Of a DNA stretch of 33,041 nt, positions 11,260-23,404 are shown piece after piece. The stretch's first letter is position 1. Each line of letters starts with the position of its first letter. Location: the sequence record NC_049343.1; one strand, given 5' to 3'. Both the position numbers and the translations under genes were made by a program. Source of the stretch: Escherichia phage 500465-2. The notes beneath the pieces were generated by a model, which ran no database searches, had not been told where the DNA came from, and worked only from the letters and a program-made list of their open reading frames with translations.

Positions 11260-11860
11260 TTCACTGTTACCGCCATCAGCCAGCCGTTTCATGCGTTGCG
11301 CCGAAGCAGTCGGAGCGCGCATTACAGACATCCCGGTAGACCTCAACACGCTGTGGTCACCGGACACCTGCCCGGTGCATTTGCTGCCTTATCTCGCCTG
11401 GGCGTTTTCCGTTGACCGCTGGGATCGCAACTGGCCGGAAGAGACAAAGCGACAGGTGATTCGTGATGCATGGCTGATACACCGACACAAAGGGACCATC
11501 AGCGCACTGCGAAGAGCCGTGGAGCCTCTCGGCTACCTGATTGAAGTAAAGGAGTGGTGGCAACTCAACGAGGAGCCAGGAACATTTCGCATTGTTGTCG
11601 GAGTACTTGATCAGGGCATCACCGATGAAATGTATCAGGAACTTGAGCGCCTTATTGCGGATGCAAAACCAGTAAGTCGCCATCTGACGGGGCTGGCGAT
11701 CAGCCTGAGTGTGAACGGAAAGATTTTCGTTGGTACGGGATGCTATCACGGCGATGCCCTGACGGTTTATCCCTACACCCCGGAGTCCATTATTGTCGAA
11801 GGGGATTATTTCCCTGCCCCGGCCATTCATTTAATTGATAATCTGAGAGTAAACGCATGA
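11252..11860 (+). CDS. Baseplate/tail protein I (P2 gpI-like)
   Basis: ATG at 11252 overlaps the J stop; ends with overlap onto the H start (ATGA). Confidence 0.8.
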   Translation: MSNSLLPPSASRFMRCAEAVGARITDIPVDLNTLWSPDTCPVHLLPYLAWAFSVDRWDRNWPEETKRQVIRDAWLIHRHKGTISALRRAVEPLGYLIEVKEWWQLNEEPGTFRIVVGVLDQGITDEMYQELERLIADAKPVSRHLTGLAISLSVNGKIFVGTGCYHGDALTVYPYTPESIIVEGDYFPAPAIHLIDNLRVNA

Positions 11861-13362
11861 CAGTGAAATACTACGCCATTCTGACTAATCAGGGCGCGGC
11901 ACGACTGGCTAACGCGACGATGCTCGGCAGTAAGCTGAATCTGACGCAAATGGCCGTTGGTGATGCAAATGGTGTGTTACCAACACCAGACCCTGCACAA
12001 ACAAAACTGATTAACCAGAAACGCATTGCACCGCTGAATCTTCTGAGTGTTGACCCTAACAATCAGAGCCAGATTATTGCTGAGCAAATCATCCCTGAAA
12101 ACGAGGGAGGATTCTGGATCCGTGAGATTGGTCTTTATGATGATGAAGGTGTACTCATTGCGGTGGCAAACTGCCCGGAAACGTACAAACCGCAGTTGCA
12201 GGAAGGCAGTGGACGCACCCAGACTATCCGCATGATTCTGGTTGTCACGAACACCGAAGCCATCACGCTGAAAATCGACCCGTCGGTGGTACTGGCGACC
12301 CGTAAATACGTGGATGATAAAGTCCTGGAATTAAAGCTGTATGTGGATGACCAGATGAGAAACCACATTGCCGCACAGGATCCTCATACCCAGTATGCGC
12401 AGAAACATAATCCGACATTTACCGGAGAACCAAAAGCGCCGACGCCTGCCGCAGGAAATAACACCACGCGGATTGCGACCACTGAGTTTGTTCAGGCCGC
12501 TATTACCGATCTGATTAACGGTGCGCCAGCCACGCTGGACACACTGAAAGAAATTGCCGCAGCCATTAACAATGACCCGAAATTCAGCACCACCATTAAC
12601 AATGCGCTGGCACTGAAAGCGCCGCTATCGAGTCCGGCACTTACCGGAACGCCAACAGCACCTACTGCGGCACAGTCGGTCAACAATACACAGATTGCCA
12701 CCACAGCTTTTGTGAAATCAGCAATTGCGGCAATGGTGGGTTCTGCCCCTGCGGCACTGGATACACTGAATGAACTGGCGGCGGCGCTGGGGAATGACCC
12801 TAACTTTTCAACAACAGTGCTTAATGCACTGGCAGACAAACAACCGCTGGACAATACGCTGACTAATTTGAGTGGAAAGGATGTTGCTGGTCTTCTCGCA
12901 TACCTTGGTTTGGGAGAAGGTGCTCCAGCTATTGGCGTTCCGTTCTTCTGGCCCTCCGCGGCAATGCCAAATACTGTAATCGACAGCTGGTCCGGTATGG
13001 TGTTTTTGAAGTTCAACGGGGCGAAATTTTCTGCCTCTGATTACCCTGTGCTGGCGAAAGTGTTTCCTTCGCTGGTATTACCTGAAGCCCGCGGTGATTT
13101 CATTCGTATCTGGGATGACGGGCGAGGTGCAGACGGTGGTCGCGAATTATTAAGCTGGCAGGCAGCTACAAACTTTTCTCAGTTTGCCGGGAATATAGGC
13201 GAAGGTGCGGGACACGCAATTAACTTTCATGATGGCATCGCCGGAAATCAGCCAGGATTTTCACGATTTAATTTCACCAGTAACTCTGTGGGTGATGGTG
13301 TGAATTTTGTTGCTGTCAGACCGCGAAATATTGCATTTAACTTTCTGGTGAGGGCTAAATAA
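11857..13362 (+). CDS. Tail fibre protein H (constant N-terminal part plus currently expressed variable C-terminal part Sv)
   Basis: 501-aa ORF; two tandem ~53-aa repeats (T.IATT.FV...APA.LDTL.E.AAA..NDP.FSTT..NALA.K.P); a Gin-type crossover site lies inside the ORF at 12893-12918. Confidence 0.9.
   Translation: MTVKYYAILTNQGAARLANATMLGSKLNLTQMAVGDANGVLPTPDPAQTKLINQKRIAPLNLLSVDPNNQSQIIAEQIIPENEGGFWIREIGLYDDEGVLIAVANCPETYKPQLQEGSGRTQTIRMILVVTNTEAITLKIDPSVVLATRKYVDDKVLELKLYVDDQMRNHIAAQDPHTQYAQKHNPTFTGEPKAPTPAAGNNTTRIATTEFVQAAITDLINGAPATLDTLKEIAAAINNDPKFSTTINNALALKAPLSSPALTGTPTAPTAAQSVNNTQIATTAFVKSAIAAMVGSAPAALDTLNELAAALGNDPNFSTTVLNALADKQPLDNTLTNLSGKDVAGLLAYLGLGEGAPAIGVPFFWPSAAMPNTVIDSWSGMVFLKFNGAKFSASDYPVLAKVFPSLVLPEARGDFIRIWDDGRGADGGRELLSWQAATNFSQFAGNIGEGAGHAINFHDGIAGNQPGFSRFNFTSNSVGDGVNFVAVRPRNIAFNFLVRAK
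12893..12918. repeat. Gin/Cin/Pin-type recombination site (left), inside H
   Basis: ttctcgcataccttggtttgggagaa; matches the reverse complement of the right site at about 20 of 26 positions, core TTGGTTT.GGAGAA. Confidence 0.55.
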
Positions 13363-13955
13363 TGAAACCTGTTTTTGATGAAAATGGGCTGGCTACAGTG
13401 CCGGGCGATATGCGTTGTTTTTATTATGATGCTGAAACATCTGAGTATACGGGCTGGTCTGATGAATATATTAATACTGGCGTAAGTATGCCCGCCTGTT
13501 CCACTGGTATTGACCCTGGCGAAAACATTCCGGGAAGAGTGGCAGTATTTACAGGTAAGGGATGGAGCCATGAAGAAGACCATCGCAATGAGACTGTTTA
13601 CTCAATCGAAAATGGTGCTGCTGTTACAGTGGATTATATCGGTGCCATCAAAAACGGTTATGTCACGCTTTCACCGTTAACGCCATATGATAAATGGGAT
13701 GGTGAGAAATGGGTGACAGATACTAAGGCACAACACGGTGCCGCAGTAGAAGCGGCAGAAGCACAGCGCCAGTCACTGATTGATGCTGCAATGGCTTCCA
13801 TCAGCCTGATTCAGCTGAAATTACAGGCCGGGCGGAAGCTGACGCAGGCAGAAACCACCCGGCTTAACGCCGTGCTTGATTACATTGACGCGGTGACGGC
13901 AACAGATACGAGCACCGCGCCGGATGTCATCTGGCCTGAACTGCCGGAGGCGTAG
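13362..13955 (+). CDS. Tail fibre assembly protein (P2 gpG / Mu U-like)
   Basis: 197-aa ORF directly after H; C-terminal ...DTS.APDV.WP.LPEA signature shared with the minus-strand paralogue. Confidence 0.85.
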   Translation: MKPVFDENGLATVPGDMRCFYYDAETSEYTGWSDEYINTGVSMPACSTGIDPGENIPGRVAVFTGKGWSHEEDHRNETVYSIENGAAVTVDYIGAIKNGYVTLSPLTPYDKWDGEKWVTDTKAQHGAAVEAAEAQRQSLIDAAMASISLIQLKLQAGRKLTQAETTRLNAVLDYIDAVTATDTSTAPDVIWPELPEA

Positions 13956-14367
13956 GCCATTCAATATCTGGCGCACCGGAAGTATCGACCAGTTCCAGTG
14001 CGTCCAGATAATCCAGCCACAAATTATATTGCACCAGTTCCTCACCTTTCAGGCGACCAATCGCCGCTTTACCAGGCCATTGCTTACTGTTTATGTATTC
14101 GTTGACCTGATTAATCAATTGCTGCTTTTCCAGTTCGGCTGCGGCAATTTGTTCCTCATGAGTTGGCGGTGGAATATCAATCCATGCAGGCATTCCGTCG
14201 ATGACACCTCTGTATTTTCCTTCTGGTGCTTCCTTCATAAATTCGGCGGCAACAGTGTCGTCAATTTCGATTCCATCACCGGGCCATTCGCCGGATTCCT
14301 GATAAGCGATTTTAAGCTCCACAGGGAAAAACGCATTTTTATCGGCACTGAAAATATATTTCTGCAT
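13927..14367 (-). CDS. Alternative tail fibre assembly protein (U'-like), in the currently silent orientation
   Basis: 146-aa ORF on the opposite strand; C-terminus LVDTSGAPDIEWPTPPAVQAR parallels the gpG C-terminus. Confidence 0.8.
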   Translation of the reverse strand: MQKYIFSADKNAFFPVELKIAYQESGEWPGDGIEIDDTVAAEFMKEAPEGKYRGVIDGMPAWIDIPPPTHEEQIAAAELEKQQLINQVNEYINSKQWPGKAAIGRLKGEELVQYNLWLDYLDALELVDTSGAPDIEWPTPPAVQAR

Positions 14368-14369
14368 TT

Positions 14370-14725
14370 CTACCGTCCTATCGAAATATAACTGAATCTG
14401 TATTGCTGTGAGATATCACTGGTTGCCACACGCCACGCTGAATTACTGATATGTTCAAAATTTACAGACAAAACCTGCGGGGCAGGATTCGACGGGTCTG
14501 ACTGAACGGCATCAGACATAACACTGACTGAAATCATCGGCTGATTAGGGAATGGTATAGGGAAGTGTCCACTGATAAAGCGGGTCGTGTTTCCTGAAAA
14601 AGTGCCAAACTGAACAATATATCCACCTGGTAGCCTGAACCATCCCGAACCAGAAGCGAATGCTCCCATATCCGGTATCTGATTATCTCCTGTGCCCACA
14701 TCCCTTTTCGCCGCTTCTCCTAAAC
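14370..14725 (-). CDS. Alternative tail-fibre C-terminal variable segment (Sv'-like); promoterless exon fused to H only after inversion
   Basis: Minus-strand ORF 14370..14768 whose first codons lie beyond the right crossover site; shares the GLGE junction with H (H: LAYLGLGEGAPA; here: LNVGLGEAAKRD). Confidence 0.6.
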
Positions 14726-14740
14726 CAACGTTTAAGAAAA
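14715..14740. repeat. Gin/Cin/Pin-type recombination site (right), just upstream of the invertase gene
   Basis: ttctcctaaaccaacgtttaagaaaa; resembles gix/cix/hix consensus (TTCTC..AAACC..GGTTT..GA.AA) as recalled. Confidence 0.55.
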
Positions 14741-14795
14741 TGCAGAGGTAACAGCTAACTGGCATCATCCCCGGTTTTTATTCAGGGGGATGATC

Positions 14796-15383
14796 ATGCT
14801 TATTGGCTATGTTCGCGTATCAACAAATGACCAGAATACAGACCTGCAACGAAACGCTCTTGTTTGTGCAGGATGCGAACAAATATTTGAAGATAAATTA
14901 AGCGGGACAAAGACAGACCGACCGGGATTAAAACGCGCTTTAAAGCGCCTTCAAAAAGGCGACACGCTGGTTGTCTGGAAACTGGATCGCCTCGGGCGAA
15001 GCATGAAACATCTGATTTCTCTCGTCGGGGAACTACGGGAGCGAGGGATTAATTTTCGCAGTCTGACCGACAGCATAGATACATCTTCTCCAATGGGGCG
15101 TTTTTTCTTCCACGTGATGGGTGCCCTGGCTGAAATGGAACGTGAATTAATTGTTGAACGTACACTGGCCGGACTGGCTGCAGCGCGCGCACGAGGGCGC
15201 ACAGGCGGACGTCGCCCGAAGCTGACAAAAGAACAGCATGAGCAAATAGCAAGGCTGATCAAAAACGGGCACGACAGAAAACAACTGGCAATAATTTACG
15301 GCATTGGTATATCGACGATTTATCGTTACCACCCCGCAGGAGAATCAAGCGGAACAATTGAGAAGAGTCAGGAAACAAAATAA
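14796..15383 (+). CDS. Serine recombinase DNA invertase (Gin/Pin/Cin/Hin family)
   Basis: MLIGYVRVSTNDQNTDLQRNALVCAGCEQIFEDKLSG...GDTLVVWKLDRLGRSMKHLISLVGELRERGINFRSLTDSIDTSSPMGRFFFHVMGALAEMERELI is near-identical to Gin/Pin as recalled; catalytic-Ser N-terminal domain and C-terminal HTH. Confidence 0.92.
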   Translation: MLIGYVRVSTNDQNTDLQRNALVCAGCEQIFEDKLSGTKTDRPGLKRALKRLQKGDTLVVWKLDRLGRSMKHLISLVGELRERGINFRSLTDSIDTSSPMGRFFFHVMGALAEMERELIVERTLAGLAAARARGRTGGRRPKLTKEQHEQIARLIKNGHDRKQLAIIYGIGISTIYRYHPAGESSGTIEKSQETK

Positions 15384-15410
15384 CCGCTAATCTGGTCATT
15401 AGCGGTTTTT
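15384..15410 (+). terminator. Rho-independent terminator-like hairpin after the invertase gene
   Basis: accgctaat-ctggtc-attagcggt followed by ttttt. Confidence 0.5.
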
Positions 15411-15418
15411 GTGTTAAA

Positions 15419-15913
15419 TCAGAACAGCCCTTTAACTGAACTGACCGCGCTGTTAAGAGATGATGTCACTTTATCTTTGAAGCCGGACAGCATATCGCTG
15501 AACGATGAGGATTGCAGGCGCTCCCGCAAATCCTCATCACAGCGTTCAAGGGTCAGTGAAAATTCTATCTTTTTCGCCTTACCGTAGCGATCAAACTCGG
15601 AACGGGTCGTATTCGTTCCGGTCAGGACATACATGCCGTAAATCTGCCCGACGCCATCAATCAAAGGCCAGGGTCGTCCTGTATACGCCTGCGTGGTCAG
15701 CAGCGACAGCGACACTTCGCCACCTGTAATTTCAGGATAAAGCACACCAGAAAGAACGATGCGATCATCACCTGCACCGATATACTGCCAGCTTGCTGAA
15801 CGGTTAACGCGTTCATTTTTCACATGCCGCCAGCTTTTGTTTTGCTGTAACTGCTGATGCGGCAGCGTGCGCAGCTCAAAAACAAACATGCCGTAGATCA
15901 TCATCATGGCCAT
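15419..15913 (-). CDS. Tail protein U (P2 gpU-like)
   Basis: N-terminus MMMIYGMFVFELRTLPHQQLQQNKSWRHV...WQYIGAGDDRIVLSGVLYP matches the P2 gpU N-terminus as recalled. Confidence 0.85.
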   Translation of the reverse strand: MAMMMIYGMFVFELRTLPHQQLQQNKSWRHVKNERVNRSASWQYIGAGDDRIVLSGVLYPEITGGEVSLSLLTTQAYTGRPWPLIDGVGQIYGMYVLTGTNTTRSEFDRYGKAKKIEFSLTLERCDEDLRERLQSSSFSDMLSGFKDKVTSSLNSAVSSVKGLF

Positions 15914-15919
15914 GACTCC

Positions 15920-18763
15920 TCAATCTTTATCGTAAAAACTGCCACGCCCGGCACGGGCGCGCCGTTCCATTTCTGCCCTGACCATTTCACCGACCAGTTT
16001 CGCCAGTTCGCGGGGATTCTGCGTAACAACGTTATGCAGATGAACATGAATTTCACCACCAAATCCGGAGGCAACAGGCTCCCGGTTACGGGAAGTTACA
16101 GGAACTGATGCCACTGGAGATCGTATAGCCTCCGCCACCGGGCGGGAGCTGGCCGCAACAACAGGGACCAGCGCCGGAGGCAGCGGAGCCGAGACCACGG
16201 GTGTGATATTAATTGCGGGGGCAGGCTTACTGACCTGCGCAATCTTCCGCTCCTGCCACTCCCCACGAACAGCAAGTGCTCGGGGCAGGTTCTTAAAGAC
16301 AATATCGCCGGGGCCAATGCGTTTTTTCGTCTCCTCAACCAGCTTACCTGTGTTATCAGCAATTTTGCTGAGTCTGCGCAGCGTACCGGTATTGCTGTCT
16401 GTGAGCGGTTTATTGTCTTTGGGGTTATCACCTCCGGTGCCATTGCCATTTTCCACAGGCTTCGGCGGATTGATTTTCGCCAGGTCCCCCTGAAGCAAGG
16501 CAACCTTGTCCTGAAGAATGGCCTCACGCTGTGCGTCTTCGATTTTCTTGCGCGCCCTTTCCGCTTCATCCGGAAGGACGCCAAGTTTTTCAAGTATCCA
16601 CGCCAGCGTATCCAGTAGCATTTTTGCAGGTGTCAAAACAAGTTGTAACGCACCGCCAAGAACGTTACCGAATATCTCGCCAGCACTGGTACATTTATCC
16701 AGCGTTTCCTTGCTGGACTCCATCGGTGACAACAGCGATTTAAACCAGTTAAACACCTGGCTGATCCCGCTTCCGATTGCGTCAAAAACAGGACCAAACC
16801 GTTCAAAGGTTTCGCGCAACGGGGTCAGCCTTTCCATAATCCCGCTGAACACCCCGGCAAAAAATGCCCTGATGGGATCCCAGTATTTCCAGATGAGAAC
16901 GGCAGCTCCGGCAAGCGCAGCCACGATAAGACCGACCGGACTGAACAACGCCCCGATAGCGCCCCCCAGTAACGAAACGGAACCCGTCACCATTCCCCAT
17001 AGTGCTGGCAGGAGTCTGACAGCATTCATTGAACCGGTCAGGAGGGAAAAGCCAAGACGCAGTTTTGCCAGCGGGCCAGCAAGCACACCAATAGCCAGCG
17101 ACAACGAGCCAACCGTTGCAGTCATTGCCAGCAACGCACCGCCTGCTATCAGTAGCTGGCGCGTCAGTACCGGATGGGCCTGCGCCAGCGAGGTGATTTT
17201 TTCAAGCACCCGCGTGAGCCACTGCGTGACAGAACGCAGCGGACCGTCAACCAGATCACTGATGCGAATACGAAGACCTTCCCATGCGCTGTCGAGATTT
17301 TTCAGGTCCCCATCAAGATTATCGGCCATTACTTTTGCAACGCGATCGGCCTCTCCCCTTGCCCCCTGCAATTCTCTGGTCAGTTTTTGCAGCTCTCCTG
17401 AACCAGCCGCCGCAACAAGCGTCTGCAAACCAACGAACGCCTCTTCTCCGGCGATGTCCTTGAAGAAGGAGACCTGGTCCACCTGTCCGTATTTTTGTGT
17501 CGCCTTATAGAGATCAAGCAGCACATCCTCCATCGGGCGCATTTTGCCTCTGGCGTCAGCAACTGACACCCCCAGCTCTTTCAGCGCATCAGCCGCAGCT
17601 TTTGGCGGTGATGCAAGGCGGGACAGACTTGCGCGCATGGCTGTACCAGCATCGCTTCCACGAAGACCATTATTGGCAAGCATCCCGGCCATGGCTGCCG
17701 CTTCTTCAAGACTGATACCAAGTTTTGCGGCAACCGGACCGGTATACTTCATGGTTTCGCCCAGCGCGCGTAAATCAGTATTGGTCCGGGTGAATGCTGC
17801 TGTCAGCGTATCGCCAACACGGTCCATTTGATCGGCTGTCAGGTTGAATTGTGTGAGGATATTGGAGCCTATATCAGCCGTCTCGCCGAGTTCGACGCCA
17901 CCTGCCAGCGCCATATTAAGAACACCGGGCAATGCGGCCTGAATGGCCTGCGGAGTAAAACCAGCCATTGCCAGAAAGCTCTGCCCACTGGCGGCATCAC
18001 TCGCAGTAAACTGTGTTTCAGAGCCAAGTTTTAACGCCTGCTCACGCAGCGCCTTAAACTGCGGGCTGTTTTTGTCGATTCGCGTCAGTGCCTGAACGCG
18101 GGACATCTCTTTCCCGAACCCGATCGCAGGCTGCAAAAAACGCCCGGCAGCATAGCCGCCAGCCGCTGCCGCACCAATTGCCAGCGCACCACCTGTTTTC
18201 AGTTTTCCCGCAGTTTCCTGCGCGCGCGAATACCGCTCACGCGCCCGCGTTACACGCGCAAGCGCCTGCCGTTCGCGTTCAAGCTGGTTGTTGTACTGTT
18301 CGGTGCGTCTGATGGCCTGCTGGATGGTGTTATCGCTGCCTGTCAGGGAAATGCCGTGGCGTTTCAGCTCTCCGCCAAGCTCCCGCATTTTCTGAATTTC
18401 ACGTGTGCGCGATTCATTCAGGTGTTCAAGCCGGGTGCTTAACTGCTGCATCAGCTTTTGTTGTTTTTCGCTGAGCACTGTACCCGTGCGTTGTAACTGA
18501 TTAAGGGCGTTAAGCTGGCGTCGTGCTTTCAATATGCCAGCATCCGCTTTACTGACAGCGTCGCGGGCGCGCTCAAATGATCGCGCCTGACGCTCGAGAT
18601 TTTTGATCGCCCCCTGCGTTCGCTGGATGGAGTCACCAAACTGCCCCATCAGGCGGCGGGCGTTTTCGGCAGGCCGGGTCAGCCTGTCAACGGCGCTGAA
18701 AGCGACCCGGATATCAAGAGTCTTCATTGTCTGCATTCCCGCTGCGAAGTGCCGCCCGCTCAC
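15920..18763 (-). CDS. Tail tape measure protein (P2 gpT-like)
   Basis: 947-aa ORF, helical/Ala-Gly-rich with hydrophobic central segments; located between E/E' and U. True start may be an internal ATG (MQTMKTLD). Confidence 0.9.
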   Translation of the reverse strand: MSGRHFAAGMQTMKTLDIRVAFSAVDRLTRPAENARRLMGQFGDSIQRTQGAIKNLERQARSFERARDAVSKADAGILKARRQLNALNQLQRTGTVLSEKQQKLMQQLSTRLEHLNESRTREIQKMRELGGELKRHGISLTGSDNTIQQAIRRTEQYNNQLERERQALARVTRARERYSRAQETAGKLKTGGALAIGAAAAGGYAAGRFLQPAIGFGKEMSRVQALTRIDKNSPQFKALREQALKLGSETQFTASDAASGQSFLAMAGFTPQAIQAALPGVLNMALAGGVELGETADIGSNILTQFNLTADQMDRVGDTLTAAFTRTNTDLRALGETMKYTGPVAAKLGISLEEAAAMAGMLANNGLRGSDAGTAMRASLSRLASPPKAAADALKELGVSVADARGKMRPMEDVLLDLYKATQKYGQVDQVSFFKDIAGEEAFVGLQTLVAAAGSGELQKLTRELQGARGEADRVAKVMADNLDGDLKNLDSAWEGLRIRISDLVDGPLRSVTQWLTRVLEKITSLAQAHPVLTRQLLIAGGALLAMTATVGSLSLAIGVLAGPLAKLRLGFSLLTGSMNAVRLLPALWGMVTGSVSLLGGAIGALFSPVGLIVAALAGAAVLIWKYWDPIRAFFAGVFSGIMERLTPLRETFERFGPVFDAIGSGISQVFNWFKSLLSPMESSKETLDKCTSAGEIFGNVLGGALQLVLTPAKMLLDTLAWILEKLGVLPDEAERARKKIEDAQREAILQDKVALLQGDLAKINPPKPVENGNGTGGDNPKDNKPLTDSNTGTLRRLSKIADNTGKLVEETKKRIGPGDIVFKNLPRALAVRGEWQERKIAQVSKPAPAINITPVVSAPLPPALVPVVAASSRPVAEAIRSPVASVPVTSRNREPVASGFGGEIHVHLHNVVTQNPRELAKLVGEMVRAEMERRARAGRGSFYDKD

Positions 18764-18950
18764 GCCAGCTAACCACTTCGCCGGGCGTCATCATGAAGAT
18801 TTCGGCGGGCGACCAGTTAAAAATAACGGCAATATCTGCCACAAAGTCTTCTATGTGCTCAAAGCACACAACCGTGATCAGGCTTCCGTCGCCTGTTCGT
18901 TCTTCCCGCCAGAGTCCGCACCGCTCAAAAAATTTACGGCAACCACACAT
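18714..18950 (-). CDS. Tail assembly chaperone E' frame (expressed as E+E' fusion by -1 frameshift)
   Basis: -1 frame ORF overlapping the 3' end of E; slippery heptamer at 18926-18932. Confidence 0.65.
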   Translation of the reverse strand: MCGCRKFFERCGLWREERTGDGSLITVVCFEHIEDFVADIAVIFNWSPAEIFMMTPGEVVSWRERAALRSGNADNEDS

Positions 18951-19243
18951 AACTGAATAAAGTCACGGGATGCCATTTTTTTGATCGTCACTTCATCCAG
19001 TCGCGGTGATGTCACGCGTGACAGCAGCGTAAACATGGATTCCGCTTTCAGATTCAGCACATCAGACAGCGACAAATCTCGCAGAGATCCAGCCTGCTCA
19101 ATAGCCCCGGTGATCTCCACATACGTGATTTTTTCGCCGCCTCGCTCAATTGGTTGGGTAAGTTTTACGCCACGCTCACTGGTTTCTTTCACAGTGTCAG
19201 TAACTACCGTGTTTTCGGTATCGATGTTTTTCGTCTCTTTCAT
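18878..19243 (-). CDS. Tail assembly chaperone E (P2 gpE-like)
   Basis: 121-aa acidic ORF between the tail tube gene and the tape measure gene. Confidence 0.8.
   Translation of the reverse strand: MKETKNIDTENTVVTDTVKETSERGVKLTQPIERGGEKITYVEITGAIEQAGSLRDLSLSDVLNLKAESMFTLLSRVTSPRLDEVTIKKMASRDFIQLCVVAVNFLSGADSGGKNEQATEA
18926..18932 (-). other. Programmed -1 ribosomal frameshift slippery site T_TTT_TTG
   Basis: Minus-strand reading gta aat ttt ttg agc (E frame) versus cgt aaa ttt ttt gag (E' frame); same heptamer as the P2 E/E+E' site as recalled. Confidence 0.65.
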
Positions 19244-19297
19244 CAGGAAACTCCTTTCAGTCAGAGGCGACGCACTGCGCCGCCTGCATATTACTTA

Positions 19298-19810
19298 TCA
19301 GCCAAGCCCAAGCGCGGAACGGATGCGATCGGACACAATGTCCTTGCCGTCCTTCCGGTAAATGAAGTTCAGCAGGTCAATCTCCCACAACGGGCGATCG
19401 TTAACACTCAGCTTGTAGTAGGTGTTTTTAATGGCGTAAGTGTGTGATGTGGCTTCGCCCTGTTTGGCTTCCCCCATATCAATTTCCGTCACACGTCCGC
19501 GCATTTCGACTTCATACAGGTCGCTTTCTGCATCGGTGTAGTATTCACCCGCAAAACGCAGCAGCGTGCCGTCAATCGTGCCGCCATACTTAAGGAACAG
19601 CGCACGAACTGCGCCCCCCATGACAAAGCTCGCATCAAGCGCAGAGTCGTCCAGACCGAGATCAATACTTACCGCCCCCATCATGCCACCACCCCGGTAG
19701 CTGTCGGTTTTGCGCGTCAGTTTGGGCAGAGTGACGGACGTCACCTTACCCACTTCGTTTTCACCATCCACAAACAGCGTAAAAAAGCGAAGATGTTTTG
19801 GCACAGCCAT
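19298..19810 (-). CDS. Tail tube protein (P2 gpFII-like)
   Basis: 170-aa ORF directly downstream of the sheath gene on the same strand. Confidence 0.9.
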   Translation of the reverse strand: MAVPKHLRFFTLFVDGENEVGKVTSVTLPKLTRKTDSYRGGGMMGAVSIDLGLDDSALDASFVMGGAVRALFLKYGGTIDGTLLRFAGEYYTDAESDLYEVEMRGRVTEIDMGEAKQGEATSHTYAIKNTYYKLSVNDRPLWEIDLLNFIYRKDGKDIVSDRIRSALGLG

Positions 19811-20994
19811 CAGGCACCTCCCAGAACCGCAAATGCGGGTTCAAAGTATTCATCAGTAAACGTCTGGTAAAGCTCCATGTCTTCCAGTGGCGGAACGGGC
19901 GTATATTTGTAGCGAATACGCACACGCCCCTGACGTAAATCCGTGGTGCTGTTATCCACCACGTCATACCAGCACTCCGCGCCAATCAGTTTCCCGGCAG
20001 TAACCAGTGAATCCAGTTTTGCCCTGATGGCACTGATAACATCCTTCACGTTCGCAGGCGTCAGTGGACTGTCGATGGTTTCAAACTGCGCTTCCGCAAT
20101 TGAATCAGCCAGCACCTGTGCGGTTCGGGTATACACCTCAAAGATGTAGGCGTTCGTTTCCGGTGTGCGGTTGCCCCAGAAGCGGAACCCGTTGCGACGA
20201 ATAATGGTCGTGATTTCTTTGTTGTTGAGGCTGTTGGCATCACTGTCTTCGGCCTGTAACGACCAGAACACATGCCTCGACATCCCCAGCACATTTTTAA
20301 CCGGAACGTTGGACAGTGATTTGTGCCATCCCTGCTCATGGTCAATGTACGCACGAAGGCCGCACGCATAGGCAGGCGCGGGGAACGTTTCGTTTTTGCC
20401 ACTTTTCGGGTTGTAGGCGATGAAGTCCGGCCATAAGAGCATCACCTCACGTTCGTTGAATTTCTGGCGGTAGGTAATCGCCTCAGCCATCGTGTTACAG
20501 CCGTGACATGAGGCATACACAAACGCGCGCAGTTTACCTGCAATCACGCACAGGGATTTTGTTACAGCCTCCGTGTCCAGCTCCGGCGCGGCCAGAATAC
20601 GCGGACGGTATCCGATGCTTTCATCCTGCTCTGCAACAAGCAGCGCATACATCCCCGTATAGCTGCCGTCATCCTCAGAACCACCGATAACCAGTTGATC
20701 CTGCGTCTTTCCGTCTTCTTCTTTGTGTTCAGCCACGCGAACGACGATCACCTTTGTGCTCACCTGGTCTGCGATGGCCTTAAGCGCACGATAAAGCGTC
20801 CCCGTTGTCCCGCATTTTCCCAGCACGTCATTGACGCGGGTCAGCAGTGTGGGCTTGTTCAGCGGGAACAGCTTCGCGTCCGCATCATCCGCCGTTGCCA
20901 CGATACCGATAACGCTGGAATCAACATCGTTAATCGCTGTTACCAGGTCGGTATTTTCCGTAACACGGGCACCATGAAAACGAGTTTCACTCAT
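19810..20994 (-). CDS. Tail sheath protein (P2 gpFI-like)
   Basis: 394-aa ORF; blocks FPLNKP, QAIADQ, CQKLRAF-like, DQEQGWHK.LSNV, LIRR.GFRFWGNRT, NYTRTAQV, YTPVPPLE match P2 FI as recalled. Confidence 0.92.
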   Translation of the reverse strand: MSETRFHGARVTENTDLVTAINDVDSSVIGIVATADDADAKLFPLNKPTLLTRVNDVLGKCGTTGTLYRALKAIADQVSTKVIVVRVAEHKEEDGKTQDQLVIGGSEDDGSYTGMYALLVAEQDESIGYRPRILAAPELDTEAVTKSLCVIAGKLRAFVYASCHGCNTMAEAITYRQKFNEREVMLLWPDFIAYNPKSGKNETFPAPAYACGLRAYIDHEQGWHKSLSNVPVKNVLGMSRHVFWSLQAEDSDANSLNNKEITTIIRRNGFRFWGNRTPETNAYIFEVYTRTAQVLADSIAEAQFETIDSPLTPANVKDVISAIRAKLDSLVTAGKLIGAECWYDVVDNSTTDLRQGRVRIRYKYTPVPPLEDMELYQTFTDEYFEPAFAVLGGA

Positions 20995-21151
20995 AGCTTC
21001 AGCCCCTTGTATCCGTTAAATGATTCGGCAACAATCATCACCCACCACGCGCGTAATCTCACCCCTGCGCCATTCTCCCGCCACGGCGACAACAAAAAGC
21101 AGTAACCCCCTCCGCACGCACATGCGACCATGCCACACAGGGAGGGAGCAG

Positions 21152-22261
21152 ATGACCGACACCACCATGCAATTGCTCAGTCAGGGCACAGACCCCGTGA
21201 AAATGCCGGATTTTGATATTCTCGCCGAGGGTAAAACGCTGTCCGGCGTGGCAGAACGCCTGATGAGCCTGTCACTGACCGACAACCGGGGATTTGAGGC
21301 GGACCAGCTCACCATCACGCTGGATGATGCCGATGGCCAGTTGCAGCTACCGCCACGGGGCGCGCGTCTGACGGTTCTCATTGGCTGGAAAGGGGAACCG
21401 CTGACAGAAAAAGGCACTTACATTGTTGATGAAATCGCTCACGAAGGACCGCCGGACAGGCTGACTGTTTCAGCCAGAAGCGCAGATTTTCGGGATGAAT
21501 TTAATGTTAAACGTGAGGCGTCCTGGCATGATGTGACCGTTGAACGTGTGGTATCCGCCATCGCTCATCGGTACGGCCTGAAACCGCAAATCAGCGAAAT
21601 GCTGATGGATATCGAAATCGACCACGCCGACCAGACTGAAGAAAGCGACATGTCCTTCCTTACGCGCATGGCGGAAATGCTGGGCGCAATCACCACGGTA
21701 AAAAGCGGTAATCTGTTATTCATCATGCCCGGCGGTGGCGTAAACGCACAGGGCCAGCCGTTGCCATCGTTCGCCATCACACGCAGCAGCGGCGATCGCC
21801 ATCAGTTCCGCATTGCTGACCGCGAGGCGTATACGGGGGTACGCGCTTACTGGCTTGATCTTAATTACGGGAAAAAGAAAAAAGTCAGCGTGAAACGCCG
21901 CAAACCGCCAAAACCCAAAAAGGAGAAAAGCAGCAGCCGTGAAGGTGATTATATGGAAGGCGCGGAAGGCAATGTGTTTGTGTTACGCAAGACTTATCAG
22001 AACGAGCAGGCAGCAAGACGCGCAGCGGCGGCAAAGTGGCAGCAGCTACAACGCGGAGCCGCATCGTTTTCCATCACGCTGGTGCGTGGACGTGCAGAAC
22101 TCTACCCCGAAATGCATGGCACGGTAACAGGATTTAAAAGCGAGATTGATAATCAGGACTGGATTATTGCGAAAGCCGAGCACACCATTGATAACAGCGG
22201 CTTTACCACACAGCTTGAGCTTGAGGCAAAAATCCCGGAATGGATAGCAGAAACAGAGTGA
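21152..22261 (+). CDS. Tail protein D (late control gene D-like)
   Basis: ORF 21020..22261; likely start ATG 21152 behind GGGAGGGAG; C-terminal part resembles gpD. Stands alone on + strand, divergent from FI. Confidence 0.8.
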   Translation: MTDTTMQLLSQGTDPVKMPDFDILAEGKTLSGVAERLMSLSLTDNRGFEADQLTITLDDADGQLQLPPRGARLTVLIGWKGEPLTEKGTYIVDEIAHEGPPDRLTVSARSADFRDEFNVKREASWHDVTVERVVSAIAHRYGLKPQISEMLMDIEIDHADQTEESDMSFLTRMAEMLGAITTVKSGNLLFIMPGGGVNAQGQPLPSFAITRSSGDRHQFRIADREAYTGVRAYWLDLNYGKKKKVSVKRRKPPKPKKEKSSSREGDYMEGAEGNVFVLRKTYQNEQAARRAAAAKWQQLQRGAASFSITLVRGRAELYPEMHGTVTGFKSEIDNQDWIIAKAEHTIDNSGFTTQLELEAKIPEWIAETE

Positions 22262-22381: not shown

Positions 22382-23404
22382 TTAATACGCATTTAATTTA
22401 AATTTGTATTTGCCTTCTATGTAATGGATAAATTCAATTATGCTTTTTTCTATCGCATCTAATATATGAATATATCCATCCCGATTTAAGGTCCTATCCA
22501 ACTCAAAGTGATGAACTATCCCATGTCTATATTGTATGATTTCAGAAATTCGATTCTCAAGAAAATCAACTGATTTTCCAATTCTTTTTTTCTTATAAAG
22601 AATCGCTCTCACATCTATATCCAGCCACTCTTTATATGCTTTGTTTAGGTGGGTTAAGTTTTGAAAAGTGTAATTTCTTGCAATAACACTTTCTATTGAA
22701 ATATTTCCTTTCTCTATCTCAAGCAGAATATCAAAATCAACTTTTTGCTTATACGATGTTCTTTTTGCTATTGCGAAAGGATCGTACTTTATAAGTATTT
22801 GAAAAGCTCTAGAGAAAAAGTATTCAAACATAGCAACCGCAAAAGGTACTAATCCATTATATATAACTCTACTGGGATCCATACATTGCATGTAATCAAA
22901 GTATTCGGATAAGCCGCCATCTTCCGGTAGGTTTAATTTAATAGAAGGTTCAGGTAAGGCATGTTTAACAGCGGAAATCTCATGATGGACATGATTAAAT
23001 ATTGAAGAAATGCCACGACTGATCGGACTACTAGAATCCTTCCATAGAGGAGCGTACCTATTTTTCCCATAATCACCTATAAGTGTTCCACCAAAAAGAC
23101 TCCTTGCGCCTTTTAGAACATCATTAAGCATTTTTACATCATGCCAACTAGCGCTATATAAATTACGCACATGCAATGCCCATTTATTACCAGATATGTG
23201 TAATTCGTCATTTGAAACAGGATATATATCAGCCGAAACTCCATCTGTAGATTTGAAGTCCGTATCATCAAACCAAGAGTAATTCAACGTTCCTTGGGGC
23301 CATTCCCACAAATGTTTACACCTTTTAAAACCTAAATTTTCAAGGTAATTTTTAAGTTCGTTTCTAGTTGCTTTTTTAGGGTACAGCGTTATATCTCTTC
23401 CCAT
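22382..23404 (-). CDS. Hypothetical protein, AT-rich cargo gene between D and ogr; C-terminal HEPN-like Rx4H motif (candidate abortive-infection/defence protein)
   Basis: 340-aa ORF in a visibly AT-rich block; no resemblance to P2 structural or regulatory proteins that I recognise; motif IIQYRHGIVHHFELDRT near C-terminus. Confidence 0.7.
   Translation of the reverse strand: MGRDITLYPKKATRNELKNYLENLGFKRCKHLWEWPQGTLNYSWFDDTDFKSTDGVSADIYPVSNDELHISGNKWALHVRNLYSASWHDVKMLNDVLKGARSLFGGTLIGDYGKNRYAPLWKDSSSPISRGISSIFNHVHHEISAVKHALPEPSIKLNLPEDGGLSEYFDYMQCMDPSRVIYNGLVPFAVAMFEYFFSRAFQILIKYDPFAIAKRTSYKQKVDFDILLEIEKGNISIESVIARNYTFQNLTHLNKAYKEWLDIDVRAILYKKKRIGKSVDFLENRISEIIQYRHGIVHHFELDRTLNRDGYIHILDAIEKSIIEFIHYIEGKYKFKLNAY

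Follow-up and report, generated by a model that had tools for sequence, protein, structure and literature searches.

Results

A functional two-state invertible tail-fibre switch of the Gin/Pin type very probably occupies a 1.8-kb segment of the window, by which we mean the whole 33,041-nt stretch of Escherichia phage 500465-2 DNA that was analysed (NC_049343.1). The element that carries it is a prophage of the P88-like type (Xuanwuvirus, Peduoviridae), from E. coli of enterotoxigenic type. The crossover sites, the reading frame, the sequence conservation of the invertase and its enhancer, the occurrence of both orientations in nature, and a crossover within the core region of the sites support this reading directly. 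By analogy with the Gin/Hin/Cin/Pin-type family, inversion would be expected to depend on host Fis and negative supercoiling and to proceed at a family-like switching rate, and the two fibre tips would be expected to differ in receptor specificity. An earlier note on this DNA had described a Gin-type invertible tail-fibre segment, and every structural element that we tested for was present. The kind of system is already known: it is an ordinary textbook case of programmed DNA inversion. Coordinates of its parts are collected in Table 1.

Table 1. Parts of the tail-fibre switch and their positions in the window
Feature	Position	Strand	Basis or detail
H, expressed form (501 aa)	11857-13362	+	PF12571 at N-terminus
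Constant part of H (aa 1 to ~350), outside the invertible segment	11857-12905	+	PF12571 N-terminal tail-collar fibre domain, E 7.6e-63
Left crossover site (26 bp, gix/pix-like), inside H	12893-12918		Core TT at 12905-12906; TTCTCGCATACC-TT-GGTTTGGGAGAA
Variable H C-terminus, now expressed (StfE-like, weak tail-collar signature)	12906-13362	+	40% identical to e14 StfE, E 6e-26
Assembly chaperone of the expressed tip (TfaE-like)	13362-13955	+	Caudo_TAP PF02413, E 5e-27; 63.5% identical to e14 TfaE
Alternative assembly chaperone (TfaP-like), currently silent	13927-14367	-	Caudo_TAP PF02413, E 2.8e-33; 55.6% identical to e14 TfaP
Alternative promoterless fibre C-terminus (gp53-like C domain), currently silent	14370-14728	-	PF21882, E 3.7e-9
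Right crossover site (26 bp)	14715-14740		Core AA at 14727-14728; TTCTCCTAAACC-AA-CGTTTAAGAAAA
Gin-family serine DNA invertase, outside the segment	14796-15383	+	Resolvase PF00239, E 1.4e-50, and HTH_7
Enhancer-equivalent stretch (nt 19-90 of the invertase gene)	14814-14885	+	Homology to P1 cin enhancer and Mu gin
Bidirectional terminator-like hairpin between invertase and convergent gene U (inverted repeat I4)	15382-15407		10-bp stem, then T-run on both strands

Two fibre tips, each with its own chaperone

The segment holds two convergent cassettes, each consisting of a fibre C-terminus and, behind it, an assembly chaperone of the Caudo_TAP family. The constant N-terminus of the fibre lies outside the segment; two alternative C-termini, each in frame with it, are encoded on opposite strands within. 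This arrangement had been proposed in the earlier note, with the variable C-terminus of H and an assembly gene on the plus strand and an alternative assembly gene and fibre C-terminus on the minus strand, and the ORFs are indeed there, with matches to the Pfam families Caudo_TAP and PF21882. When inversion at the core was simulated, the constant part of H was joined in frame to the silent C-terminus, yielding a product of 468 aa that has its first 354 aa in common with the 501-aa product of the present orientation.

Over a portion of its length, the constant part shares 76% identity with that of P1 S. The tips themselves come from different domain families, one StfE/collar-like and the other gp53-like C; the Pfam Collar match to the expressed tip, at E 0.009, falls below the cutoff. 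Neither tip showed similarity to Mu S/S', P1 S/S', P88, or P2 H in a similarity search, and a tblastn comparison of the silent tip with e14 gave no match at E 1e-3. A promoter scan inside the segment produced matches that were no commoner than in shuffled sequence.

The crossover sites belong to the gix family

Two imperfectly symmetric 26-bp crossover sites in inverted orientation bracket a segment of 1822 bp. When the two are compared as an inverted repeat, 20 of the 26 positions agree; the central dinucleotides, the same in both, are inverted (TT/AA). Invertase sites are required to have matching 2-bp overhangs (PMC1904230). The pair is missing from the output of a generic repeat finder for the window because it has no 9-nt exact seed. 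Because about four pairs with as good a plain inverted-repeat match would be expected by chance in the whole window at spacings of 3 kb or less, the evidence for the sites is a family-specific matrix and not repeat statistics.

That weight matrix was built with the Mu gix half-sites as its sole input and was used to score the whole 33-kb window. The two sites rank first and second, at 21.7 bits each. The next best match scores 13.7 bits, the maximum in 30 shuffles is 18.6 bits, and an exact calculation gives 3e-4 expected sites per window. Judged as gix-family members, both sites are far beyond chance. The claim that the inverted sites resemble gix/cix/hix was thus upheld by the formal comparison with gix and cix that had been suggested as a check, and the resemblance extends to pix. 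We also looked for a third or fourth site of the kind found in a shufflon (as in EPEC or p15B) and found none in the window; the third-best match lies inside gene D and is within the shuffled range. The relatives that bear an invertase each have exactly two high-scoring sites, which flank their own segment. Phages pro483 and Peduovirus magyaro have a left site identical to that of the window, and the window's right site is close to e14 pixR and P1 cix.

The adjacent gene encodes a Gin-family invertase

The gene beyond the right site encodes a small serine recombinase in which the N-terminal catalytic domain, including the active-site serine, is joined to a C-terminal helix-turn-helix. Residues 1-183 align to the Gin structures 4m6f and 3uj3 (E 3e-101), and the catalytic Ser9 is present at the position of the S9A mutation in structure 3uj3. 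The protein is 98.5% identical to the P88 invertase, 85.6% to Mu Gin, 77.6% to Pin, and 74% to Cin, in agreement with the Gin/Pin-like invertase gene that had been read at this place. To locate its Fis-contact residues, we relied on a correspondence of residue numbering between Hin and Gin, which we take to be valid here. The invertase motif EQIARL, aligned to Hin EQISRL, conserves Q, R, and L of helix 1 of the DNA-binding domain, and the basic residues K46, R47, and K50 of helix B (LKRALK) are conserved as well. The invertase-specific residues of Hin that contact Fis and the enhancer are Q151, R154, and L155, together with basic residues at 47, 48, and 51 (PMC3798978).

The invertase gene appears to contain, at its 5' end, a recombinational enhancer in cis. 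The enhancer's position was taken from the annotation of the P1 record, in which the Cin inversion enhancer is nt 19-90 of cin; the equivalent stretch in the window is identical to Mu gin at 69 of 72 positions and to cin at 56 of 72. A search for Fis-like 15-mers (G-N13-C) at a spacing of 48 bp returned candidates 49 bp apart, the first of which is absent in P1. The distance from the site core to the start of the invertase gene is 68 bp, compared with 67 bp in Mu.

Both orientations occur in sequenced E. coli

The segment has inverted in nature, very probably by exchange at the site centres. The simulated inverted sequence of 2601 nt is 100% identical, in one aligned piece, to sequences in the complete genomes of E. 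coli strains 503025, 503440, and 503829, and the window orientation is 100% identical in E. coli strains B7A and TW10573. The strains in the inverted state carry the same prophage at the same chromosomal locus, with flanks that are 99.9% identical and only window positions 12905-14731 reversed. Outside the segment, prophages in opposite states differ by 1-2 substitutions over 18 kb, and the inversion is therefore very recent. In strain 503025, the sites are the predicted reciprocal half-site chimeras of the window's two sites, so that the exchange can be narrowed to the interval from position 12 to position 20 of the 26-bp site. The annotation of the same strain includes a 468-aa 'phage tail protein', and the alternative, TfaP-like chaperone is on the expressed strand. 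The three inverted-state genomes all come from one sequencing series, and a single inversion event could be the ancestor of all of them.

Among E. coli genomes matching at a coverage of at least 80%, 41 have the window form and 25 the inverted form. The 2601-nt query, which comprises the fibre, the segment, and the start of the invertase gene, matches in some part in 3439 of 5426 E. coli genomes, at a median of 2 places per genome. One observation counts against a fully functional prophage: the replication gene of the prophage in strain 503025 contains an internal stop.

Layout of the prophage

A P2-type set of head, lysis, baseplate, and tail genes is present according to PGAP annotation and Pfam. 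The PGAP annotation of the identical B7A prophage names P2-family capsid, GPO, gpM, V, W, J, I, FI, FII, E, T, U, D, and ogr, and Pfam matches in the window are to GpU, Phage_base_V, and GPD. The gene order is not that of canonical P2, in which H-G-(fun/Z)-FI-FII-E-T-U-D lie on one strand: here U, T, E', E, FII, and FI follow the invertase directly on the minus strand (15419-20994), and the plus strand carries D. Accordingly, the switch is flanked by G and the 3' end of U, and the invertase abuts U, not FI. The earlier note had put the inversion system in the G-FI slot; this placement fails, since the FI-to-U block is on the opposite strand and it is U that adjoins the invertase. The true G-FI slot does house the switch in two Peduovirus relatives, pro483 and Peduovirus magyaro. 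Flipping of the FI-to-U block by an invertase was considered and rejected, as no relic gix-like sites were found at the block borders. A 340-aa ORF next to D had no PADLOC or PHROG match.

Discussion

In the mechanism that we propose, the late baseplate/fibre operon (V-W-J-I-H) would read from constant H across the left crossover site and run on into the variable C-terminus, with its cognate chaperone, that is in line with it at the time; the opposite cassette, being promoterless, would stay silent. Dimers of the invertase would occupy both 26-bp sites, come together with an enhancer, bound by Fis, within the first ~90 nt of the gene that encodes them, and cleave both sites at the central TT/AA dinucleotide. 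The particles of a lysate could then carry either of two fibre tips, which would amount to host-range bet-hedging. The architecture of the segment suggests that receptor specificity may alternate in this way.

Three other accounts of the data were weighed. The first concerns the opposite orientation itself, which might be an assembly error or the product of RecA-dependent recombination between inverted repeats. Assemblers can be misled by inverted repeats, but those at issue are 26 bp long and identical at 20 of 26 positions, too short and too divergent for RecA recombination or assembly collapse. Moreover, three complete genomes are concordant, and the recombinant sites, exact reciprocal chimeras of half-sites exchanged within the core region, bear the signature of a serine invertase, which makes this account extremely improbable. 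We also regard it as very unlikely that the switch is a frozen relic, with remnant sites and an invertase that no longer recombine, and that its two orientations go back to a single ancient event or to acquisition on separate occasions. The 100%-identical genomes do number only five, split two against three by orientation, and the three share a project. An ancient event, however, does not fit the 1-2 substitutions over 18 kb, which point to a very recent inversion. Nor does a relic fit an intact invertase ORF with Ser9 and a catalytic domain nearly identical to that of active Gin, or two sites that have kept full family scores, and the switches of closely related P2-like prophages invert in culture (PMC4272514).

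The remaining account accepts a working switch and attributes its inversion mainly to another Pin-family invertase acting in trans, of the e14 Pin, PinQ, or PinR type, instead of to the adjacent gene. Gin and Hin can stand in for one another, as can their sites (PMC1904230), the e14 P segment is inverted by PinQ of prophage Qin (PMC12529663), the window sites are closest to the e14 pix sites, and several related loci occur in most E. coli genomes, as the partial matches to the 2601-nt query indicate (3439/5426 genomes, median 2 places). Against this, the neighbouring invertase gene is intact and canonically placed, with a cis enhancer, assigned by homology, at Mu-like spacing. We consider a mainly foreign enzyme unlikely, and it would change only which enzyme acts, leaving the nature of the element unaffected. 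A functional switch with its own invertase thus remains our preferred reading.

One orientation might conceivably serve the lysogen, with a chimeric fibre-tip protein made from the prophage masking an outer-membrane receptor and blocking the adsorption of other phages, a suggestion to which we attach very little probability. It arises from the StfE/TfaE-like character of the expressed cassette and the pix-like sites, both as in e14; with the e14 P segment inverted by PinQ, StfE2 has recently been reported to block T2 adsorption (PMC12529663).

As a discovery the switch has little value, being already annotated in P88 and pro483 and demonstrated experimentally in P2-like prophages of EPEC. It does explain why automatic annotation splits an intact fibre gene into 'partial' pseudogenes and names the silent cassette as a separate protein, and it serves as a warning that the assemblies of near-identical strains will differ by a 1.8-kb inversion. 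It also offers two swappable receptor-binding cassettes with their chaperones, of potential use for the engineering of P2-type phages or tailocins.

Comparison with known systems

Canonical P2 has homologous baseplate, fibre, and tail genes, with the tail genes all on one strand. Its gene H contains one orphan gix-like site, TTATCGAATATC-TC-GGTTTACAGGAA, which scores 23.2 bits; there is no second site and no alternative cassette. The earlier note was correct in stating that canonical P2 lacks such a switch and carries Z/fun between G and FI, where we find fun(Z) and no invertase.

The likeness to the Mu G segment and Gin, also claimed beforehand, is confirmed in the order of the parts: constant fibre part, site, tip and chaperone, convergent chaperone and tip, site, and an invertase outside. 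The first 360 nt of Mu gin, enhancer region included, are ~93% identical in DNA to the invertase gene of the window. After nt 360, DNA identity falls to ~55%; the DNA-binding domain has diverged from that of Mu gin, and the Hin DNA-binding domain matches at least as well. Mu is a transposable phage, in contrast to the P2-like phage described here, and its G segment is longer (~3 kb versus 1.8 kb). The Mu core is TC where that of the window is TT, with the window half-sites closer to pix and cix. Relative to Mu S/U and S'/U', the tips and chaperones of the window are unrelated or only ~30% identical.

It is the pix sites of the e14 P segment in E. coli K-12 that the window sites most resemble. 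Those sites, CTCTCGAAAACC-TT-GGTTTGGGAGAA and TTCTCCCAAACC-AA-CGTTTATGAAAA, are nearly the same as ours, and they bound a segment of 1797 bp, compared with 1822 bp here. The likeness extends to the cassettes, the expressed one being StfE/TfaE-like (40% and 63.5%) and the silent chaperone TfaP-like (55.6%). However, Pin is only 77.6% identical to the window invertase, e14 is a defective lambdoid element, and no e14 similarity was detected for the silent tip.

In pro483 and Peduovirus magyaro, the latter from E. coli O157:H43 T22, constant H and the segment are related to those of the window (89-91% over the aligned parts). In these two phages, FI stands behind the invertase on the same strand, whereas the FI-to-U block is inverted in the window prophage. 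P88 (Xuanwuvirus P88, Peduoviridae) has the same layout as the window: V-W-J-I-H, invertible segment, invertase, the block U-T-E'-E-FII-FI on the other strand, and D, which is on the plus strand. It differs in having Mu-like gix sites with a TC/GA core, Mu-like U/U' cassettes, and a longer fibre, and there is no ORF between D and hok. Finally, in P2-like prophages of EPEC E2348/69, inversion has been shown by sequencing and PCR, for a two-state version and for a three-site shufflon version (PMC4272514).

Crossover sites flanking the tail-fibre segment

The earlier note proposed that inverted sites resembling gix, cix and hix bracket the segment. Compared as an inverted repeat, the two sites agree in 20 of 26 bases, with the central dinucleotides, TT and AA, in inverted orientation. 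Approximately four such pairs within 3 kb of one another are expected somewhere in the window; as a plain inverted repeat the pair is at chance level and not significant, and a generic repeat finder run on the window did not report it. We therefore do not rest the sites on this measure but on a weight matrix derived solely from the gix sites in the Mu record (four half-sites). Both sites score 21.7 bits and no other position in the window scores as high; the third-ranked position reaches 13.7 bits, the peak across 30 shuffles was 18.6 bits, and the exact expectation is 3e-4 sites per window. This family-specific test is decisive as to the reality of the sites, as the note had read them. Exactly two strong matches to the matrix flank the segment in every relative examined. 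Canonical P2, which lacks an invertase, retains a single strong gix-like orphan site within H; this suggests an ancestor with invertible fibres, by descent or by exchange.

Features of the invertible segment and its surroundings (window coordinates unless marked L006, a stretch of the phage P2 record containing H)
Feature	Position	Strand	Evidence or sequence
Tail-fibre gene H, 501 aa	11857-13362	+	PF12571, E 7.6e-63
Left site	12893-12918		TTCTCGCATACC-TT-GGTTTGGGAGAA
Fibre-assembly chaperone	13362-13955	+	Caudo_TAP, E 5e-27
Second chaperone, convergent	13927-14367	-	Caudo_TAP, E 2.8e-33
ORF without fibre N-terminal part	14370-14728	-	gp53-like C domain, PF21882
Right site	14715-14740		TTCTCCTAAACC-AA-CGTTTAAGAAAA
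Serine recombinase (invertase)	14796-15383	+	Resolvase + HTH_7
Bidirectional terminator, after invertase	15382-15407
U, T, E', E, FII, FI, downstream of terminator	15419-20994	-
D, past FI-to-U block	21020-22261	+
P2 orphan site, in H	L006 858-883		TTATCGAATATC-TC-GGTTTACAGGAA; Mu-matrix 23.2 bits

An ORF map and a Pfam scan of the window recover every gene of the proposed layout: H, two chaperones, a silent tip and an invertase. The B7A RefSeq annotation cuts the intact H ORF (19458-20963 in L001, the B7A chromosome stretch with the identical prophage) into two 'partial' pseudogene pieces and gives the silent cassette (14370-14669) an entry of its own as 'gp53-like domain-containing protein'; the tip labelled 'partial' in strain 503025 is the other one. 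The split H and 'partial' tips in B7A and 503025 are an annotation artefact of invertible genes.

Both orientations occur in natural genomes

To simulate inversion, each site was cut in the middle of its central dinucleotide. In the product, the reading frame of the H constant part continues into the silent C-terminus, giving a 468-aa protein that has its first 354 residues in common with the 501-aa form. Both versions of a 2601-nt stretch were then searched against 5426 complete E. coli genomes. Strains B7A and TW10573 match the window version at 100% identity; strains 503025, 503440 and 503829 match the simulated inversion product at 100%, in one aligned piece. At a coverage of at least 80%, the window form has matches in 41 E. 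coli genomes, the inverted form in 25.

The 503025 prophage occupies the same chromosomal locus, beside flk, yfcJ, fabB and mnmC, has the same gene set, and is annotated with a 468-aa 'phage tail protein'. Direct comparison shows flanks that are 99.9% identical, with only window positions 12905-14731 reversed. Its sites, TTCTCGCATACC-TT-GGTTTAGGAGAA and TTCTCCCAAACC-AA-CGTTTAAGAAAA, are reciprocal half-site chimeras of the window sites. Since the window sites differ from each other at positions 3, 6, 7, 9, 12 and 20, these chimeras place the exchange between positions 12 and 20, around the central dinucleotide. Serine invertases break both strands at the site centre, leaving 2-bp overhangs, before a 180-degree rotation (PMC1904230), and the exchange seen in 503025 is what such an enzyme does.

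Neither an assembly error nor RecA recombination fits as the source of the opposite orientation, given that the repeats are 26 bp long and only 20/26 identical, and that exact reciprocal chimeras occur in three complete genomes. A frozen relic that no longer recombines is likewise unlikely: beyond the segment only 1-2 substitutions separate inverted from non-inverted prophages, and the invertase remains intact. A Pin-family enzyme acting in trans could account for part of the inversion, as members of the family cross-react (PMC1904230, PMC12529663), but this would leave the nature of the element unchanged.

The invertase and its putative enhancer

Residues 1-183 of the invertase align without gaps to two Gin crystal-structure sequences (E 3e-101), and the catalytic serine is present where structure 3uj3 bears an S9A mutation. 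The protein is 98.5% identical to the phage P88 invertase, 85.6% to Mu Gin, 77.6% to e14 Pin and 74.0% to P1 Cin. The gene is a mosaic: nt 1-360 share ~93% identity with Mu gin DNA but the rest only ~55%, and Hin (1hcr) is at least as good a match to the DNA-binding domain as Gin is. The P88 enzyme is nearly identical and works on Mu-like sites with a TC core, whereas the window sites are pix-like with a TT core.

Certain residues are conserved solely in Fis/enhancer-dependent invertases (PMC3798978), and all of them are present in the window invertase. Hin Q151, R154 and L155 correspond to the motif EQIARL. The basic Hin residues 47, 48 and 51 correspond to K46, R47 and K50.

In the P1 record, the enhancer for Cin-mediated inversion is annotated within cin, at nt 19-90. 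Because the equivalent stretch (14814-14885) is identical to Mu gin at 69/72 positions and to cin at 56/72, and because 68 bp separate the right core from the invertase start codon (67 bp in Mu), the putative enhancer and its geometry are conserved at the level of sequence. A stem-loop at 14761-14800 (+), GGCAUCAUCCCC...GGGGAUGA, spans the invertase Shine-Dalgarno sequence and start codon (-24.4 kcal/mol, z-score -2.3) and might hold invertase translation low; the leader of Mu gin has no such stem-loop.

Proposed mechanism

Late V-W-J-I-H transcription would cross the left site and enter the tip-and-chaperone cassette that faces the operon, leaving the other cassette silent for want of its own promoter; a promoter scan gave no more matches than in shuffled sequence. 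The invertase, produced from its own gene outside the segment, would flip the 1822-bp segment with Fis bound to the predicted enhancer within the invertase gene, and progeny particles would bear one of two tips. The sites, the reading frame, the conserved invertase and enhancer sequences, and the two natural orientations with exchange at the core are demonstrated by the sequence data. From the family we infer dependence on Fis and supercoiling, a rate of switching, and different receptors for the two tips. A 2025 report describes PinQ inversion of the e14 P segment yielding a protein that blocks T2 adsorption (PMC12529663); a similar benefit to lysogens of the window prophage is highly improbable.

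Prophage context

The window is a P2-like prophage of enterotoxigenic-type E. coli, with a layout unlike that of P2. P2 lacks an invertase: downstream of its H and G come a terminator and an oppositely oriented fun(Z), after which FI to D and ogr share a single strand. This arrangement agrees with the earlier statement that canonical P2 has no switch and carries Z/fun between G and FI. The further claim that the inversion system fills the G-FI slot holds for pro483 and Peduovirus magyaro but fails for this prophage, where U adjoins it and FI to U lie on the minus strand. With D on the plus strand, the F-operon block is thus inverted in place relative to P2 and separated from D. Block and D together span 15419-22261 in the window, and P88 shows the same arrangement. 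The Mu-matrix scan found no gix-like sites at the borders of the FI-to-U block.

Between D and ogr lies a 340-aa ORF (22382-23404, -) with no counterpart at that position in P88 or P2. Its Pfam match to HEPN_RiboL-PSP is weak and below the cutoff (E 1.2e-4, 22.5 bits), and PADLOC and PHROG gave no match; it is a candidate cargo or defence gene, at what would be an unusual hotspot for a P2-like phage. ParM-like and plasmid-partition genes, unusual in a P2-like phage, adjoin the replication endonuclease gene of the same prophage (L001 5781-7056, left of the window). The B7A record has an IS1A directly upstream of flk (L001 33503-34200; window ~25890) that is lacking in the window and 503025, and the window and B7A record differ by 16 small indels over 25.9 kb; thus, the window derives from a different assembly or sister strain than the B7A record.

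Comparison with known invertible fibre systems

Mu G, P1 C and e14 P are the textbook invertible fibre segments with Gin-family invertases. The e14 P segment is closest to the window in sites, which are nearly identical, and in cassettes: the expressed tip shares 40% identity with StfE, its chaperone 63.5% with TfaE, and the silent chaperone 55.6% with TfaP. Comparison of the tips with those of Mu, P1, P88 and P2 revealed no similarity. Matches in several unrelated phages start exactly at the left site (that in vB_EcoM-606R2 at query base 1038, window 12894), showing that segment and invertase move as a single module.

Invertible fibre segments are already annotated in isolated P2-like phages. 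P88 (Xuanwuvirus, Peduoviridae) has the same layout as the window, including the segment and an annotated invertase, with Mu-like TC/GA-core sites. A segment and invertase of this kind also occur in pro483 and Peduovirus magyaro, both Peduovirus phages, with FI coming immediately afterwards; their left site is identical to that of the window. In P2-like prophages of EPEC E2348/69, phase variation through inversion has been demonstrated by sequencing and PCR, in two-state and three-site versions (PMC4272514). The window locus is an ordinary member of this already known family.
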